Shown: piece after piece, positions 6,811 to 30,146 of the stretch
Layout of the letters: each line of letters starts with the position of its first letter
How positions within the stretch are numbered: position 1 is the first letter of the stretch
Assembly: GCA_021295955.1 (NCBI GenBank)
Contig: JAGWBJ010000004.1
Coordinates: 1-32,000 of the forward strand
Source of the DNA: Dehalococcoidia bacterium
Lineage (GTDB): Bacteria; Chloroflexota; Dehalococcoidia; Lucifugimonadales; JAGWBF01
DNA length: 32,000 nucleotides
Reading direction: 5' to 3'
Position numbers and translations under genes: made by a program
The notes under the pieces: generated by a model
The model's input: only the letters and a program-made list of their open reading frames with translations
Databases searched by the model: none
What the model was told of the DNA's origin: nothing

Positions 6811-6859
6811 GTGTGCCTCAATGGGAGCCGGTTGGGCGGAGTAGGTGAGACCGCCGGCG

Positions 6860-6923
6860 CAGCGTACCGGCGGCCCAGCGTACTAGCAGCCCAAGGTTCT
6901 AGCGGCTCAGCGTTCTAGCGGAA
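6860..6923 (+). repeat. Four imperfect 16-nt tandem repeats (consensus CAGCGTWCTAGCGGCC) in the lpdA leader
   Basis: The four units are CAGCGTACCGGCGGCC, CAGCGTACTAGCAGCC, CAAGGTTCTAGCGGCT and CAGCGTTCTAGCGGAA. They are head to tail, and the last unit runs into the SD (GGAAGGTGGGG) of lpdA. Confidence 0.8.
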
Positions 6924-22370: not shown

Positions 22371-22399
22371 CTCTCCATAAGCGTCCATCGGGGTGAAGT

Positions 22400-23023
22400 T
22401 TGCGTCATTATGAGCTGGTAGTTGTGCTGAGTCCCATCCTGTCCCAGGAGGAGGCCGCCGGGGAGTGGGACCGCATCAAGTCCCTGGTGCATCGGAACGG
22501 CGGCGGAGACCCCTACGAAGAGCGTTGGGGCATGAGGAGGCTAGCCTACCCGATAAAGAAGGCTGGGCAGACCTTCCTGGAGGGCAACTATCTCCTCACC
22601 CGTTTCAGCTCGGACACCGTGGTGCCTCCCGAGCTGGAGGGCCACCTGAGGCTTTCGGAGAGCGTCCTCCGGTACCTCCTCACCAAGTCAGGCCCCCCCG
22701 AGTCGACGCCCCCGTCGCCGCAGATGGTCCAGATGGCCCGGGCCGCCGAAATCCGTCAGCAGCAGGCCGCCGCGGCACAGGCCGCCGCCGCTGCTACGGC
22801 CCAGGAGGCCGAGCAGTCCTCCGCTGCCGCTACGGCCCAGGAGGCCGAGCAGTCCTTCGCTGCCGCTACGGTCCAGGAGGCAGAGCAGCCCTCCGCCTCC
22901 GCCGACGTGCTCGAGGAGCAGGCCCCTGCGGATGGCGCGCCCGCCGGCGAAGGCGCGGTCGAGGAGCCGGCGGAAGAGGCCCCGGCGGAAGAGGCCCCGG
23001 CTGCCGCCCAGGAGCCGGAGTAG
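22400..23023 (+). CDS. rpsF: 30S ribosomal protein S6 with a long Ala/Glu/Gln-rich repeat extension
   Basis: MRHYELVVVLSP...WGMRRLAYPIKK...GNYLL...VLRYLL is the canonical S6 core (about 97 aa), followed by a low-complexity tail of about 110 aa. TTG start. Confidence 0.85.
   Translation: MRHYELVVVLSPILSQEEAAGEWDRIKSLVHRNGGGDPYEERWGMRRLAYPIKKAGQTFLEGNYLLTRFSSDTVVPPELEGHLRLSESVLRYLLTKSGPPESTPPSPQMVQMARAAEIRQQQAAAAQAAAAATAQEAEQSSAAATAQEAEQSFAAATVQEAEQPSASADVLEEQAPADGAPAGEGAVEEPAEEAPAEEAPAAAQEPE
22793..22900 (+). repeat. Three 36-nt in-frame tandem repeats inside the rpsF tail (ATAQEAEQSSAA units)
   Basis: The three units are 22793-22828, 22829-22864 and 22865-22900. Units 1 and 2 differ at 1 nt. 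Unit 3 differs at a few positions. A further 15-nt duplication (CCGGCGGAAGAGGCC x2) lies near 22969-22998. Confidence 0.85.
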
Positions 23024-24004: not shown

Positions 24005-25063
24005 ATGGAACGCGCCGCAGGCAAGCCCCGGCGGCGGCTGGCCATAGGGATCGGAGTATTCTTCATCCTGGCCATCGCAGCGGTGGTGGGCTACGGCTAC
24101 TACGACAGGTTCGTAGCCCCCACCAAGGTGCTGGCCGCCAGGGTCGGCAACACCCGATACACCCAGGGCGACCTGGTGGACCGGATGCGCGTGCTTCAGG
24201 CGGACGCCCGCGCCGAAGGGCAGCCCTTTGACCTGGGTAGGACGCCCTTCGAGGTGCTGGACAAGATGTCCGAGGCGGAGGTAATCCGCAGGTTCGCGTC
24301 GGAATACGGGGTCCAGGTGACCGATGAAGACATCGAGTTCGGGCTTCTCCTGCGCTTCTACCCCAGGGTGCCCGAGGGCCAGGAATCGGTGTCCGGCCAG
24401 ATCGAGCAGGAGTACAAGGACACCTACCAGCGGTTCCTGAACGAAAGCCACATCGACGACGAGGCGTACAGGGGCATAGTCGAGGAGACCATATACCGAT
24501 CACGGCTCAGGGCTGCCCTGGGCGAGCTTGTCCCTGCTACGTCGGAGCAGATGGAGGTCCACTGGATCCGCGTCCAACCCCAGGGAGGGTTGCCCATACT
24601 GGGGCAACCCCGGAACGTCTCGCCCGAGGAGGTGCTCCGAAAGCTGGAGACGGCCGACTTCGACGAGGTCGCCATGGAGGTGTCCATTCCCGGACCCTAT
24701 GCCGACCGGGAGGGGTACGTGGGCTGGGTGCCCAGAGGGGCGTTTCCTCGCCTGGACGCCGTGCTGTTCGGGGACGAGTCGACAGACCCTATACCTCTCA
24801 ACCGGCCCAGCGGCCCGGTCCTCCTCGATGATGGCGCCTATATACTAAAGGTGACCGGCGGGCCCGAGGTACGGGAGGTCTCCCAGGTCATGATCGATCG
24901 CCTGAAGGAGCAGGCGCTGGACCAGTGGCTGGGCCAGAAGAAGATCGAGGGGTCCGAGGAGGGGTGGCTGGAGGTGAAGTTCGACAGCAAGATATATGAC
25001 TGGGTGATAGGACAGATGAGGCAGTCGGCCGGACCACCGACTCCCGAGCCCGCCGCCCAGTGA
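24005..25063 (+). CDS. Membrane-anchored peptidyl-prolyl isomerase-like protein (SurA-N/PpiD-like plus parvulin-type domain)
   Basis: Basic N-terminus and one TM helix (LAIGIGVFFILAIAAVVGYGYY), then a SurA_N-like helical region. A parvulin-like segment follows (MEVHWIRV...ADFDEVAMEVS...EGYVGWVPRGAFPRLDAVLFG...GPVLLDDGAYILKV). ATG 24005 is preferred over the TTG at 23900. Confidence 0.65.
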   Translation: MERAAGKPRRRLAIGIGVFFILAIAAVVGYGYYDRFVAPTKVLAARVGNTRYTQGDLVDRMRVLQADARAEGQPFDLGRTPFEVLDKMSEAEVIRRFASEYGVQVTDEDIEFGLLLRFYPRVPEGQESVSGQIEQEYKDTYQRFLNESHIDDEAYRGIVEETIYRSRLRAALGELVPATSEQMEVHWIRVQPQGGLPILGQPRNVSPEEVLRKLETADFDEVAMEVSIPGPYADREGYVGWVPRGAFPRLDAVLFGDESTDPIPLNRPSGPVLLDDGAYILKVTGGPEVREVSQVMIDRLKEQALDQWLGQKKIEGSEEGWLEVKFDSKIYDWVIGQMRQSAGPPTPEPAAQ

Positions 25064-26385
25064 CACGGGACACCTTGCATGGCGCCGACGAGATAGGGGT
25101 CGGTCTCATGGGCCTGGGGGTGGTGGGGGGCGGCGTGGCCGCGACCCTGTTGGACCCCGCACAGCACGTCGCCCGCACCGTGGGTCGGCCCGTCTCCCTC
25201 AAGCGAGTCCTGGTCCGGCAACCGGACAAGGAGCGCCAGATGGGCGTCCCTCCCGGGATCCTCACCGCCGACCCCACTCTCCTGCTGAACGATCCGAGCA
25301 TCCAAGTCGTGGTAGAGGTCATAGGTGGCGAGGAGCCCGCCAGCAGCTACATCCGGCAGAGCCTCTCCCGTGGCAAGAGCGTAGTCACCGCGAACAAGGA
25401 GGTGATGGCCAAGGAGGGGCAGGAGCTTCTGACCCTCGCCGCCGCCAGGGGCGTCGACCTGCTGTTTGAGGCCAGCGTAGGAGGCGGTATACCCATAGTT
25501 GGCCCGCTCATGAAGGACCTGCTGGCCAACGACATTCGGTCCATACAGGCCATCATCAACGGCACGACCAACTACATGCTGACTCGGATGGCCCGGGACG
25601 GCATGGACTTCGACGAGGCCCTGAAGGAGGCCCAGGGCCTGGGTTTCGCAGAGGCGGACCCGGCCAACGACGTCGAGGGCATCGACGCGGGCTACAAGCT
25701 GGCAGTGCTGGCCTCCCTGGCCTTTCACACCCAGGTCCGGGCCGAGGACGTGCACAGGGAGGGCATATCGGGCCTGCGGGCCAGGGACTTCCGGTACGCC
25801 CACGAGCTTGGCTACGCCATCAAGCTGCTGGCTATCGCCAGGCGCGAGGGAGGGCAGGTCCAGGCGCGGGTCCACCCTTGCTTCGTCCCCCAGGAGCATA
25901 TGCTGGCCAAGGTGGACGGCGTCTTCAACGCCGTGGAGGTGGAGGGAGACCTGACGGGCAAGATCCTGTTCCACGGCCGCGGCGCGGGGCGTGAGCCCAC
26001 CACCAGTGCCATCATAGGGGACCTCGTGGAGGTTGCCAAGAAATTAGGGGCGGGCGGGGGACCTGCGCCCTTCTTTCCGCCCGGCAACAGCCTGACCGTG
26101 GCCCCCATGTCCGAGCTGGTGACCAGGTACTACATTCGTCTGGGCGCCGCCGACAGACCGGGGGTCTTGGCCCAGATCGCCAGGGTGCTGGGAGACCAGG
26201 ACGTGAGCATCGCGTCGGTCATTCAGAAGGACTCCAACCCGGGTTCTCAGACGGCGGAGCTGGTGGTTACCACCCACCCCGCCAGGGAGAAAGCGGTCCA
26301 GGAGTCGTTGCAGCGCATGCGTGGTCTCCAGGTCGTGCGTCAGGTGGACAACCTGGTCAGGGTCGAGGACTGGCCCTCGGACTGA
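25060..26385 (+). CDS. hom: Homoserine dehydrogenase with C-terminal ACT domain
   Basis: Rossmann GLMGLGVVGGGV, catalytic-domain motifs (IINGTTNYMLT, GFAEADPANDVEGIDAGYKLAVLA), and ACT domain (YYIRLGAADRPGVLAQIARVLGDQDVSIASV). The GTG start overlaps the preceding stop (GTGA). TTG 25075 is an alternative. Confidence 0.85.
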   Translation: MTRDTLHGADEIGVGLMGLGVVGGGVAATLLDPAQHVARTVGRPVSLKRVLVRQPDKERQMGVPPGILTADPTLLLNDPSIQVVVEVIGGEEPASSYIRQSLSRGKSVVTANKEVMAKEGQELLTLAAARGVDLLFEASVGGGIPIVGPLMKDLLANDIRSIQAIINGTTNYMLTRMARDGMDFDEALKEAQGLGFAEADPANDVEGIDAGYKLAVLASLAFHTQVRAEDVHREGISGLRARDFRYAHELGYAIKLLAIARREGGQVQARVHPCFVPQEHMLAKVDGVFNAVEVEGDLTGKILFHGRGAGREPTTSAIIGDLVEVAKKLGAGGGPAPFFPPGNSLTVAPMSELVTRYYIRLGAADRPGVLAQIARVLGDQDVSIASVIQKDSNPGSQTAELVVTTHPAREKAVQESLQRMRGLQVVRQVDNLVRVEDWPSD

Positions 26386-26489
26386 TCGCCGGCCGGCCGT
26401 TGGGAAGGGCCCTTTCCGCCCCGGACTCTGCTGCCCGACGGGAATCGGCGCCGGCGGCGGATGGGTCTAGCCAAGCCCCCTGTAGTGTG

Positions 26490-26495
26490 TATAAT
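26490..26495 (+). promoter_or_regulatory. Candidate -10 box upstream of the folE leader
   Basis: A perfect TATAAT at 26490-26495 in the hom-folE intergenic region, with no convincing -35. Confidence 0.3.
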
Positions 26496-26556
26496 AACTG
26501 AGGTTGGGAGCAGGGGCTCCGGCGGCCACAAACCCCAGGAGGTGAACACCGCGCTT

Positions 26557-26655
26557 ATGGATCCGGCTCCCAGAAAGATGCCCGGAAGGATGCCCGGAAG
26601 GATGCCCGGAAGGATGCCCGGAAGGATGCCCGGAAGGATGAAGGAGGATGGTTGA
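26557..26655 (+). CDS. Putative upstream/leader ORF MDPAPRK(MPGR)5MKEDG, overlapping the folE start
   Basis: ATG at 26557. The frame is maintained through the 12-nt repeats. TGA at 26653-26655 lies 5 nt after the folE ATG (ATGGTTGA). The longer listed ORF from 26461 is less likely. Translation is unproven. Confidence 0.35.
   Translation: MDPAPRKMPGRMPGRMPGRMPGRMPGRMKEDG
26578..26637 (+). repeat. Five perfect 12-nt tandem repeats (ATGCCCGGAAGG) immediately upstream of folE
   Basis: Exact head-to-tail copies at 26578, 26590, 26602, 26614 and 26626. Degenerate copies flank the array (CCCAGAAAG before, ATGAAGGAGG after). Confidence 0.95.
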
Positions 26656-27220
26656 GGGGCAAGCCGTCGAGACGGCGGTCGCCTCCATCCTGAAGGCCTT
26701 AGGCGAAGACGCGGGCAGGGAGGGGCTTAGAGACACACCTCGGCGGGTCGCCCGCATGTACTCCGAGCTGTTCTCAGGCGTCGGCGTAGACCCCCGCTCG
26801 GCCATCGATGCCATCTTCGAAGAAGAGCGTCACGAAGAGGCTGTGGTGGTCCTACGGGGTGTTCCCTTCTACTCCATGTGTGAACACCATCTGATGCCGT
26901 TCTACGGGCAGGCCCACATGGGGTACGTTCCCAAGAGCAAGATAGCCGGCGCCAGCAAGCTGGTTCGTGCCCTCGAGGTCGCCGCCCGCAGGCCGCAGAT
27001 ACAGGAGAGGCTCACGGCGCAAGTGGCGGACGCGGTCCATGACGTCTTGGACACGGCGGGGACCGGCGTCGTCATCGAGGCCGAGCACCTGTGCATGTCC
27101 ATGAGAGGGGTGCAGAAGCGCGGCAGCGTCGTCGTCACGTCGGCGACCCGTGGCGATTTCGACGAGGCCGGAGTCCGCCGCTCCCAGCTAATGTCTATGG
27201 TCCAAGGGCGGGCCGCGTGA
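26648..27220 (+). CDS. folE: GTP cyclohydrolase I (FolE type 1)
   Basis: GLRDTPRRVARMY, FYSMCEHHLMPFYGQAHMGYVP, RPQIQERLT and IEAEHLCMSMRGV are the canonical FolE motifs, including the Zn ligands. Confidence 0.9.
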   Translation: MVEGQAVETAVASILKALGEDAGREGLRDTPRRVARMYSELFSGVGVDPRSAIDAIFEEERHEEAVVVLRGVPFYSMCEHHLMPFYGQAHMGYVPKSKIAGASKLVRALEVAARRPQIQERLTAQVADAVHDVLDTAGTGVVIEAEHLCMSMRGVQKRGSVVVTSATRGDFDEAGVRRSQLMSMVQGRAA

Positions 27221-28200
27221 CCCCCTTTACGCGTCTCGATTCCTACCAGGGTGCTCGGGCCCACTGGGAGGCCCTTCTCCCGTGTTGCATTGCCAACACC
27301 TTCTTCATGACGCCCCAATGGCAGCAGGCCTGGTGGGACCAGTTCGGCGACGGGACCGAGATGATGCTGCTGGAACTGATGGAGCACGGCGGGGTGACGT
27401 GCATCGCCCCGCTGGCGAGAAGGGATCGCACCATCTCCTTCATCGGCGGCCAGGACCTGTTCGACTACAACGACTTCCTCGTGTCTCCCGGCTCCGAGGA
27501 CAGCTTCTACACGTCCCTGATGGACCTGCTGGACGATGAGGACTGGGATACCGTCGACCTGCCGTCTCTTCAGGACGGGTCTCCCACCCTGACCTACGTG
27601 CCGGACTTGGCCCAACGCCTGGGATACTCGGTCCAGATCGAAGAGGAGGACGTGGCGCCGTCGGTGATGCTGCCGGCGGACTGGGACTCGTACCTCCAGC
27701 TCCTGAGCAAGAAGGACCGTCACGAGCTGCGTCGAAAGCTGCGGCGCCTGGGGTCCTCCGGCCAGGAGGTCCACCACTACAAGCTCTCGGATCCGGCGGA
27801 GGTGGAGGCGGGACTGGACGACTTCTTCTCCCTGATGAGATTCAGCAAGGAGACCAAGGACACCTTCTTGACCCCAGGCCGGGAGAGCTTCTTCCGCAGC
27901 GCCGCCCTGGCGATGGCCAGGATCGGGGTATTCAGGCTGTTCTTCCTGGAGTTCAACCAGGAGCGGGTGGCCGCGGCCATGTGCTTCGACTACGGCGATA
28001 CCAGACACCTGTACAACAGCGGCTTCAACCCCGAGTATCGCTACTATAGCGTCGGCCTCGTTCTGAAGGCCCTTTGCGTGAAGGACGCCATAGAGGAGGG
28101 CAAGGCCCGCTTTGATTTCCTGAGAGGGGCCGAACCGTACAAGTACGACCTGGGTGGCAAGGACCGGACGATCTATCACATGGTGGTCAGACGCAGTTGA
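27217..28200 (+). CDS. GNAT-fold protein of the CelD/BioF2-like (Acetyltransf_6, FemAB-related) family
   Basis: N-terminal W..L......FF.TP.W...WW..FG and the C-terminal family signature YNSGFNPEY...SVG...FDFLRGAEPYKYDLGG. The GTG start overlaps the folE stop (GTGA). Only this start keeps the conserved N-terminus. Confidence 0.75.
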   Translation: MTPFTRLDSYQGARAHWEALLPCCIANTFFMTPQWQQAWWDQFGDGTEMMLLELMEHGGVTCIAPLARRDRTISFIGGQDLFDYNDFLVSPGSEDSFYTSLMDLLDDEDWDTVDLPSLQDGSPTLTYVPDLAQRLGYSVQIEEEDVAPSVMLPADWDSYLQLLSKKDRHELRRKLRRLGSSGQEVHHYKLSDPAEVEAGLDDFFSLMRFSKETKDTFLTPGRESFFRSAALAMARIGVFRLFFLEFNQERVAAAMCFDYGDTRHLYNSGFNPEYRYYSVGLVLKALCVKDAIEEGKARFDFLRGAEPYKYDLGGKDRTIYHMVVRRS

Positions 28201-29393
28201 GCGCGGCCCGAGTCGCCCTGTTAAGCTTCCACACCTGCCCCCTGGCTCCCACCGGCGAGGGGAAGGCCGGCGGCATGAACGTCTACGTGCGTGAGGTGTC
28301 CCGGAATCTCGGCAGGGCCGGCGTCCCCGTCGACCTCTTCACACGCAGCCACGCCGGGCACTGCCAGGGCGTCACGAACCTGGAGGACAACGTCAGGCTG
28401 GTGCACCTGGAGGGTGGGCCGGAGACCGCGGCCCCCAACGAGTTGTATCCGTACCTGGAGTCCTTCCTGGAAGGGCTGGTCGCCCATGCCCGGCAGGAGG
28501 CCGTCCGGTACCGGCTGGTGCACTCCCACTACTGGCTGTCGGGCTGGATCGGCCAGCGCCTGTCCAGCCGGTGGCGGGTGCCCCACGTCGTCACCTTCCA
28601 CACCCTGGGAGACGTGAAGATGCAGGCCAAGGCCGGCGAGAGGGAGTCCGACCAGCGGGGCTCGGTGGAGAGGGAGCTTGCCTCCGGGGCGCATCTGATA
28701 ATCGCCTCCAGTCCCCACGAGGAGGACGCGCTGGTCCATCTCTACGACGCGGACCGGGGCCGCATCGAGGTAGTGCCCTGTGGCGTGGACCTGTCCATCT
28801 TCAAGCCCCTGGACATCGGCGAGGCCCGAAAGCGCCTGGGCCTGAACGGAGAGCGCGTCGTGCTCTATGTCGGGCGGATCGAGGCTATCAAGGGTGTGGA
28901 CCTTCTGTTGAAGAGTGCTGCTATAATGGATGGCAAGGACTCCCTGAAAGTTCTGGTCGTGGGAGGCGATGCGACCCGGGGCGGGGAGGTGAGGCGGCTC
29001 AAGGGCCTGGCCGAGGAGTTGGGCATCGGGCAGGTGATGGAGTTCGTCGGCATGGTGGACCAGAGCCTGCTGCCCCTCTACTACAACGCCGCGGACGTGT
29101 GTGTCGTCCCATCCTACTACGAGAGCTTTGGACTCGTAGCCTTGGAGGCCCTGGCCTGCGGCACTCCGGTGGTGGCCTCCAGGGTGGGAGGTCTGCCGAC
29201 GGTGGTCCAGCATGCCAGGACGGGTTACCTCCAGTCCTGGCGGTGCCCCGAGCCCTTCGCCGACTCCCTGGAGGTAATCCTGGGCAGCAAGGTGCTCAGG
29301 AACAGCATGAGCAGGGAAGCCCGCAAGAGGGCCGAGGGCATGGGGTGGGAGATGGTCGCGGAAGAGACCAGCCGCCTTTACGATTCCCTGTAG
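28197..29393 (+). CDS. mshA: GT4 glycosyltransferase of the MshA family (D-inositol-3-phosphate N-acetylglucosaminyltransferase-like)
   Basis: MshA-specific blocks LLSFHTCPLAPTGEGKAGGMNVYV, HSHYWLSG, FHTLGDVK and HLYDADRGRIEVVPCGVD, plus the GT4 core ESFGLVALEALACGTPVVASRVGGLP. The TTG start overlaps the preceding stop (TTGA). Confidence 0.75.
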   Translation: MSAARVALLSFHTCPLAPTGEGKAGGMNVYVREVSRNLGRAGVPVDLFTRSHAGHCQGVTNLEDNVRLVHLEGGPETAAPNELYPYLESFLEGLVAHARQEAVRYRLVHSHYWLSGWIGQRLSSRWRVPHVVTFHTLGDVKMQAKAGERESDQRGSVERELASGAHLIIASSPHEEDALVHLYDADRGRIEVVPCGVDLSIFKPLDIGEARKRLGLNGERVVLYVGRIEAIKGVDLLLKSAAIMDGKDSLKVLVVGGDATRGGEVRRLKGLAEELGIGQVMEFVGMVDQSLLPLYYNAADVCVVPSYYESFGLVALEALACGTPVVASRVGGLPTVVQHARTGYLQSWRCPEPFADSLEVILGSKVLRNSMSREARKRAEGMGWEMVAEETSRLYDSL

Positions 29394-29414: not shown

Positions 29415-30146
29415 GTGCCCTCACAGCCTCCCAAGATAGCCAAGTGGTTGGCGCTCATCGGCCGTCATTTCCGCACGAGACTGCTGGGCGGCCTGCTGCT
29501 CATCGTCCCGGTAGGCATCACCTTCCTGATCCTGAAGGCCATCTTCGACTTCTTGGACCCATTGTTGAAGGACTTCATGGACCAGTTCATCACCGTCTAT
29601 CCCGGCATGGGCATAGTCGCGCTGGTCATCGTCGTCTACCTGGCCGGGATCCTGGCGACGCAGGTCGTGGGAAAGCGGATCATCGACTTGGGCATCAACG
29701 TGGTGGACCGGATACCCGTGGTCAGCGGCGTCTACCGGGCCGCCCGCCAGGCCACCGACGTGTTCTCCAACGTGGCCGGGAACGGCAGATACAGCAGCGT
29801 GGTCCTGGTGGAGTTTCCGGGCTACGGCCTCACGTCGGTGGGTCTGGTCACGGGGAAGATAAAGGACCAGAAGGGCAACGACCTACTGGCCGTATACATG
29901 CCCACGTCGCCCTTCCCCACCTCTGGGTTTCTGATAATCCTGCCCGAGGACCAGGTCACCCCCACCGACCTGGCGGTGGACGACGCCATAAAGATGATAG
30001 TCACCGCCGGGGTGGTAGTCCCCGATTCCATCGACGCCGACTACTACCCCTTCCAGCACGCGCCGTCGGTGGCGCGTAGGGCCAGTCCTGTCGGCGTGAC
30101 TATGGAGGAGACTCAGTCCGCGGACAATGTCTCCTCGAACCAGTGA
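29415..30146 (+). CDS. DUF502 family membrane protein
   Basis: Two N-terminal TM helices (LLGGLLLIVPVGITFLILKAIF, GMGIVALVIVVYLAGILA). DUF502 core motifs RIPVVSGVYRAARQ, VVLVEFP, YMPTSPFPTSGFLIILP and AIKMIVTAG. GTG start 9 nt after AGGAG. Confidence 0.7.
   Translation: MPSQPPKIAKWLALIGRHFRTRLLGGLLLIVPVGITFLILKAIFDFLDPLLKDFMDQFITVYPGMGIVALVIVVYLAGILATQVVGKRIIDLGINVVDRIPVVSGVYRAARQATDVFSNVAGNGRYSSVVLVEFPGYGLTSVGLVTGKIKDQKGNDLLAVYMPTSPFPTSGFLIILPEDQVTPTDLAVDDAIKMIVTAGVVVPDSIDADYYPFQHAPSVARRASPVGVTMEETQSADNVSSNQ

Follow-up and report, generated by a model that had tools for sequence, protein, structure and literature searches.

In the 32,000-nucleotide (nt) stretch of Dehalococcoidia bacterium DNA analysed here (contig JAGWBJ010000004.1, positions 1 to 32,000; hereafter the window), a 12-nt tandem array lies in the leader of folE, the gene coding for GTP cyclohydrolase I. 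This leader separates folE from the homoserine dehydrogenase gene hom, and folE is followed on the same strand by three further genes. Upstream of and around the array, the leader contains a promoter-like site with a predicted transcription start site (TSS), a Shine-Dalgarno (SD)-like element and a short upstream open reading frame (uORF), which includes the array and ends inside the beginning of folE (Table 1). The ATG at 26648 is the earliest possible folE start following an in-frame stop, and the FolE protein of the window is identical to MCE2404089.1, from a Dehalococcoidia metagenome-assembled genome (MAG).

Table 1. Features of the hom-folE region of the window and of the genes that follow it (aa, amino acids).
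Feature	Position	Strand	Basis and remarks
hom, homoserine dehydrogenase	25060-26385	+	NCBIfam NF004976, 521 bits; synteny
Probable relic of the 3' end of thrC (threonine synthase)	26461-26655	+	64-aa frame MGLAKPPVVCIITEVG...ALMDPAPRK(MPGR)5MKEDG(stop)
Promoter-like site TAGCCA-16 nt-TATAAT	26468-26495	+	Consensus scan, 10/12 matches; predicted TSS near 26502
Strong SD-like element AGGAGGTGA	26537-26545	+	Former thrC codons E-E-V; ATG 26557 follows after 11-14 nt
Short uORF on the predicted promoter transcript	26557-26655	+	MDPAPRK(MPGR)5MKEDG(stop); TGA 26653-26655 overlaps folE codons 2-3
12-nt tandem array	26569-26640	+	Degenerate unit CCCAGAAAGATG (26569-26580), then five perfect CCCGGAAGGATG (26581-26640)
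folE ribosome-binding region	26632-26647	+	GGAAGG of the last unit 10 nt before ATG; AAGGAGG (26641-26647) 0 nt before
Predicted hairpin sequestering the folE start codon	26645-26691	+	AGGATGG (26645-26651) with CCATCCT (26685-26691)
folE, GTP cyclohydrolase I, 190 aa	26648-27220	+	NCBIfam NF006826, 238 bits; TIGR00063, 213.6 bits; above cut-offs
PF13480 acetyltransferase-like gene	27217-28200	+	4-nt start/stop overlap
MshA-like GT4 glycosyltransferase	28197-29393	+	4-nt start/stop overlap
DUF502 gene	29415-30146	+	

The five perfect 12-nt units announced by the original prediction were recovered in three ways: (i) ATGCCCGGAAGG is read directly from the sequence five times without a mismatch (26578-26637), (ii) Tandem Repeats Finder (TRF), run on the window, delimits an array of period 12 with 6.0 copies, 96% matches and a score of 130, in the register CCCGGAAGGATG, and (iii) a pattern search of the window with the exact unit returns five matches, every one inside the array. 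With up to two mismatches allowed, the same search returns 13 matches versus 4.8 +/- 2.0 in shuffled sequences, and none of 100 shuffles reaches 13. Of the degenerate copies that had been described on the flanks, TRF retains one unit, CCCAGAAAGATG. The array therefore has the head-to-tail, near-identical units of a variable-number tandem repeat (VNTR) or simple-sequence locus. GGAAGG and an in-frame ATG are present in every unit, which is read as CCC GGA AGG ATG (PGRM). The perfect identity of the five copies points to a recent expansion.

Copy number was compared in related contigs (109 loci were fetched in all; the labels L082-L109 denote fetched relatives), and the suggestion that it varies was confirmed by their hom-folE regions. 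Indeed, 20 related contigs carry 1, 2, 3 or 6 units: a single unit is present in L082-L091 (FolE 95%), in L093, L101 and L094 (84%) and in L105 and L106; two units are present in L103 and L104; three units are present in L107, where they are perfect, and in L092, L108 and L109, where the middle unit is CCCGGAAAGGTG; six units are present in the window. The array is thus polymorphic among close strains, as expected of a VNTR. In particular, L104 (two units) and L105/L106 (one unit) encode the same FolE protein, which differs from that of the window by two residues, their folE being 98% identical to it in nucleotides, so that array length changes much faster than point substitutions accumulate. 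TRF over the 109 fetched loci restricts the array to this clade. A scan of genome contigs with FolE returned only loci that are 48-64% identical, among which there was neither a close relative nor a comparable array. Metagenomes, in a collection evidently without the samples that hold the JGI relatives, gave no match to the junction pattern and a single match to the promoter pattern (L101, one unit). Furthermore, the Logan contig SRR35761419, from an independent sample and encoding the FolE of the window without any difference, breaks off exactly 30 nt into pure array; such a break is expected of a k=31 graph on a long or heterogeneous array and is compatible with length heterogeneity, without being decisive.

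The origin of the leader is indicated by gene order in the relatives. Contigs whose FolE is 84-99% identical have the same hom-folE order as the window, with a recognisably homologous spacer. Contigs whose FolE is 67-74% identical (L095-L100, L102) have the order hom-thrC-folE, with a full threonine synthase gene in between; the thrC product of L096 scores 306.7 bits against TIGR00260 (cut-off 167). In these relatives, the thrC stop lies 8 nt inside folE (ATGGCTGA or ATGGTTGA; ATGGnTGA), a geometry identical to that of the uORF of the window. In a DNA alignment, the region 26461-26655 corresponds to the last ~65 codons of the relatives' thrC, minus an internal stretch of 33 nt and plus the repeat. 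The tails match codon for codon, namely ...GLAKGRVVCIITGTGLKD...ALKLPSLEGVKDG(stop) in L096, ...ALIDCVPKEGKGDG(stop) in L102, ...TVIDSASRKMKGDD(stop) in L093 and ...ALMDPAPRK(MPGR)5MKEDG(stop) in the window. When the thrC products of L096 and L099 were searched against the whole window by tblastn, the sole match was at 26452-26508, aligning RRRMGLAKPPVVCIITEVG with RELGLAKGRVVCIITGTG, and no further thrC similarity was found elsewhere in the window. The alignment, the matching tails and the lack of any other thrC in the window together indicate that the leader is a remnant of thrC, the retained 3' end of a deleted gene. The catalytic PALP domain has been lost, since the interval from the hom stop (26385) to folE retains no more than ~65 codons of the gene, and the 64-aa relic ORF has no family match in NCBIfam. 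The repeat unit itself is homologous to the thrC tail codons P-K-E-G (CCC AAA GAG GGG in L102), and the homologous position in the thrC-intact relatives holds the folE SD (GGAGGGAG or GAGGGG, 7-9 nt before the folE ATG). The uORF, for which a dedicated leader peptide had been proposed, is better described as the kept 3' end of thrC, given that the thrC stop of the relatives overlaps folE in the identical way.

The spacer between hom and the relic is unstable. Indeed, L084 contains a 37-nt tandem duplication (899-977), and in L094 this spacer (1904-2500) reaches 597 nt with an inserted repeat-like element (...CTCACCCTGAGCGTGTCGAAGGGC...). In L090 and L091, which belong to the 95% FolE group, an insertion of 1 nt (CCCATAAACCC for CCCAAAACCC) ~55 nt upstream of the uORF ATG creates a TAA, and the short uORF is intact.

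The relic starts ~30 nt upstream of the promoter-like site, which falls within the former thrC codons V-V-C-I-I-T. The block GGGTCTAGCCAAG-N7-TAGTGTGTATAATA is unchanged across every thrC-less lineage, and no alignment is possible over the next 80 nt upstream (0.52-0.59 identity); in the comparison with L093, identity is 0.97 for the block versus 0.59 for these 80 nt. The motif TGTATAAT is also found inside the intact thrC of L095-L102, where it is spelled GTA GTG TGT ATA ATA ACT, i.e. with codons whose usage in this genome is.074 (GTA),.43 (GTG),.20 (TGT),.255 (ATA) and.048 (ACT). In the thrC of other Dehalococcoidia, V-V-C-I-I-T is written with TGC ATC ATC, and the rare-codon spelling is restricted to this clade. 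Such a constraint at the DNA level is what an internal folE promoter would produce, and we infer from it that the block is probably active as a promoter. The presence of an internal folE promoter in thrC would explain a deletion that spared exactly this fragment.

The uORF reads from ATG 26557 and ends at TGA 26653-26655 as originally predicted, and it represents the 3' portion of the 64-aa ORF 26461-26655. Its stop codon and the folE start codon share ATGGTTGA (26648-26655), which is the overlap expected of a coupled uORF, and this overlap is kept in all 10 aligned relatives. AAGGAGG does abut the folE ATG without a spacer, as had been noticed. The repeat adds in-frame ATGs to the uORF, for which the nearest GGAAGG is 0 or 12 nt away. 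At least one ATG-initiated frame ending at the overlapping TGA is retained in each thrC-less lineage. In these lineages, folE codon 2 is GTT, GCT or ATT, always ending in T; among the T-ending folE codons of the window, only 2 of 17 retain the T throughout the thrC-less lineages. In every copy-number variant folded, the folE AUG is predicted to pair with CCAUCCU, located 35 nt further on, and its probability of being unpaired is 0.01-0.05. The conserved overlap, the T of codon 2, the predicted pairing of the AUG with its conserved stem, the 4-nt overlaps between the downstream genes and the retained ATG frames suggest that the stop/start overlap may still be in use.

It is probable that the whole represents an in-frame slippage VNTR in a thrC relic that was exapted as folE leader and uORF, with a modest tuning of folE at most. 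The description as a relic plus a VNTR, taken alone, is very likely to hold, while a measurable effect of copy number on folE is somewhat less likely than not. In brief, the ancestral order would have been hom-thrC-folE, with the thrC stop overlapping the folE start (ATGGnTGA) and a sigma-70-type promoter embedded in thrC codons ~155 nt upstream of folE. In the window lineage, thrC would have been deleted with the exception of its last ~190 nt, comprising the promoter and the folE translation-initiation region (TIR). This remnant would now serve as the folE 5' leader, its leftover frame forming the short uORF, and ribosomes translating the uORF would terminate on top of the folE AUG, where they could open the start-codon hairpin or reinitiate. 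The segment expanded by replication slippage, CCC GGA AGG ATG, would be the ancestral folE SD stretch plus an in-frame AUG. Because the unit consists of four codons, neither the frame nor the stop depends on copy number, and expansion and contraction would be tolerated, with the 1-, 2-, 3- and 6-copy alleles among near-identical strains as the presumed outcome. The array may tune folE translation, and it is most likely a tolerated in-frame repeat expansion, not a purpose-built regulator. The original prediction had thus recognised the variable array, the stop/start overlap and the absence of a known riboswitch, and had missed the recycled gene tail.

Several observations weigh against this interpretation, or at least against its translational part. 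The long relic frame does not stay open in L090/L091 and L094, and at 66% GC open stretches of 33-44 codons are nothing unusual; conservation of the relic frame was for these reasons rejected as a sign of selection. The spacing between the SD-like element and ATG 26557 (11-14 nt) is longer than the 4-10 nt found at the clear gene starts of the window, and this ATG, although shared by most relatives, is replaced by ATA in the thrC-less lineage L093/L101. For the T at folE codon 2, an effect of the second codon on initiation is an alternative explanation. The start-codon stem is kept in 10 sequences with zero compensatory changes, and both of its arms are under coding constraint. Finally, the thrC-intact relatives have a properly spaced folE SD, so that coupling may not be essential.

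The original prediction had proposed a ribosome-loading device or copy-number switch controlling folE. In its adaptive form, in which the array is a translational rheostat, additional SD plus AUG units would load more ribosomes on the uORF, reinitiation at ATGGTTGA would raise or lower FolE and the coupled proteins, and slippage would supply heritable and reversible variants. The rapid change of copy number between near-identical strains, a unit that is exactly an SD plus AUG segment, the conserved stop/start overlap and the perfect identity of the five copies, which implies recent expansion, are all compatible with this proposal, and upstream simple-sequence repeats grade expression in other bacteria, e.g. 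AGAT(n) of uspA2 (PMC7302503). However, the AUGs closest to GGAAGG within the array are 0 or 12 nt away, which does not fit the spacing of clear starts in the window, and folding of variants with 0-8 units leaves the predicted accessibility of the folE TIR unchanged. Most relatives have a single unit, the array is limited to one small clade, and a housekeeping gene of a free-living organism would be an unusual contingency target. Furthermore, with the whole device being a recycled gene tail, a designed regulator is from the outset a less likely reading of the repeat. An adaptive function of this kind is therefore unlikely. As for a switch, the array is variable and does lie in the folE leader, but a 12-nt unit cannot toggle the reading frame and the predicted accessibility is flat.

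A new metabolite-sensing leader RNA of folE, i.e. a riboswitch whose expression platform would be disturbed or extended by the repeat, is far less likely still. With the array collapsed, the leader has a constant length of 95-96 nt, and at shallow depth its identity (0.90-0.92) exceeds that of synonymous sites (0.79-0.83). A consensus fold contains a long-range helix, GGGAGC/GCUCCC, with two compensatory pairs. However, the leader is recently ex-coding thrC DNA, and at greater depth its identity (0.69-0.74) equals that of folE third positions (0.70), so that it evolves at about the synonymous rate. The two compensatory pairs come from only three divergent lineages, and covariation of the helix was rejected as too weak to serve as evidence. 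A cmscan of the whole window against Rfam at gathering thresholds gave no match, and the region 26300-26800 searched at E<=10 gave merely two chance-level matches to unrelated families, in agreement with the view that the leader is not a THF, THF-II/folE-motif or preQ1 riboswitch. No terminator-like site was found on the + strand in 26500-26648. Attenuation by a leader peptide of the trp/his type was also rejected: there is no terminator, regulatory codons are lacking and the peptide is rich in P, G, R and M without rare codons. Indeed, codon usage is.54 for CCC,.14 for GGA and.21 for AGG (21% of the Arg codons in the genes of the window), all three being in common use, and the dismissal of rare-codon attenuation was correct.

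The local and distal pairings that had been pointed out in the leader both exist (GGAGC 26507-11 with GCTCC 26516-20, and GGGAGC 26506-11 with GCTCCC 26566-71), each in the predicted minimum free energy (MFE) structure of some copy-number variant. In thrC-intact relatives, codons just after TATAAT are complementary to thrC-tail codons over 6-7 nt, namely GACGGGA/TCCCGTC in L096 (~2372-2378 with ~2468-2474) and GGGAAC/GTTCCC in L102. This complementarity echoes GGGAGC/GCTCCC of the window at slightly shifted positions and could be due to chance in GC-rich DNA or to a conserved helix at the thrC-folE junction.

Csr targets and sponge RNAs typically contain GGA-rich repeats. The array could be read as tandem sites for a protein of the CsrA/RsmA type, with CCGG/CCGG hairpins exposing AAGGAUGC in their loops and forming a repressor pad over the folE ribosome-binding site. 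The loop motif AAGGAUGC resembles the CsrA consensus A(R)GGAUG, and in the MFE structure predicted for the leader with five copies, AAGGAUG falls in 8-nt loops closed by 4-bp CCGG stems. However, a single unit is all that most relatives carry, descent from thrC tail codons accounts for the motif as an inherited SD plus AUG and Rfam returned no Csr-type RNA, which makes this explanation highly improbable. Equally improbable is an assembly or sequencing artefact hiding a true array of one or two units: the window does derive from a MAG, but the 72-nt array is shorter than ordinary reads, the independent Logan contig runs into pure array and 2- and 3-unit arrays are present in several independent assemblies, long contigs included.

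The preferred reading, a VNTR in an exapted thrC relic, has partial counterparts among known systems. In Moraxella catarrhalis, the copy number of the AGAT(n) repeat of uspA2 differs between strains and grades expression (PMC7302503). As in uspA2, identical short tandem units lie in the window between a promoter-like block and a start codon, in a strain-dependent number; unlike in uspA2, the unit is 12 nt long, is in frame within a uORF and contains an SD-like element and an AUG, and the locus belongs to a housekeeping gene (folE) of an uncultured free-living Dehalococcoidia with low copy numbers (1-6). Natural translational coupling by termination-reinitiation and engineered bicistronic designs (PMC2268962, PMC6302717) share with the window a uORF whose 3' part holds the downstream SD and whose stop overlaps the AUG, as well as a downstream start that is predicted to be structured in the window. 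They differ in that the uORF of the window is the leftover tail of a deleted gene and in that its own start codon, absent from one lineage, has a poorly placed SD. Internal promoters located in an upstream gene, e.g. for ftsA-ftsZ in Campylobacter, are conserved in step with the occurrence of the gene that they precede (PMC3847290). Similarly, the -10/-35-like block of the window lies in thrC coding sequence and is conserved as DNA against codon preference; in contrast, the fragment bearing this putative promoter, its activity being suggested by conservation, has outlived the loss of its host gene. The THF, THF-II/folE-motif and preQ1 riboswitches have in common with the leader a position directly upstream of folE, but the leader is ex-coding sequence and matches none of their covariance models even at E<=10.

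The locus could thus provide a natural example of a gene deletion shaped by the needs of a neighbour: the part of thrC carrying the folE promoter and the ribosome-binding and coupling region would have survived as a leader, in which a repeat subsequently expanded. Should FolE output depend on copy number, repeat-mediated expression variation would be extended from the surface antigens of pathogens to the core metabolism of environmental bacteria, and from transcription or frame-shifting to uORF-mediated translation. If an adaptive rheostat exists after all, it would be a contingency locus acting on translation, assembled in a free-living uncultured Dehalococcoidia from the reused 3' end of a lost gene. 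In practical terms, the array is a strain marker and a break point of short-read assemblies, and uORFs or leaders next to overlapping gene pairs should be annotated with caution, as they may be gene relics.

Downstream, the linkage folE - PF13480 - GT4 - DUF502 is maintained in all relatives, in a stretch without folate or queuosine genes. The product of the PF13480 gene is FemAB/GNAT-like, and the GT4 glycosyltransferase does not reach the TIGR03449 cut-off (373.6 against 462.5 bits). Two other tandem repeats are present in the window. The first is in an ORF (22397-23023, +) that starts like ribosomal protein S6 (YELVVVLSP...) and has a long Ala/Glu/Gln-rich C-terminal extension, in which a 36-nt (12-aa, AAATAQEAEQSS) tandem repeat of 3.3 copies and a 15-nt repeat (PAEEA) occur at 22778-22896 and 22961-23001; it represents a second in-frame VNTR of the window. 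The second, at 6850-6921, is a 16-nt tandem repeat (CGGCCCAGCGTACTAG-like) of ~4 copies with 78% matches, located just before the ATG (6931) of a + strand gene and at the end of a - strand ORF, and it may be a leader or divergent-promoter repeat.

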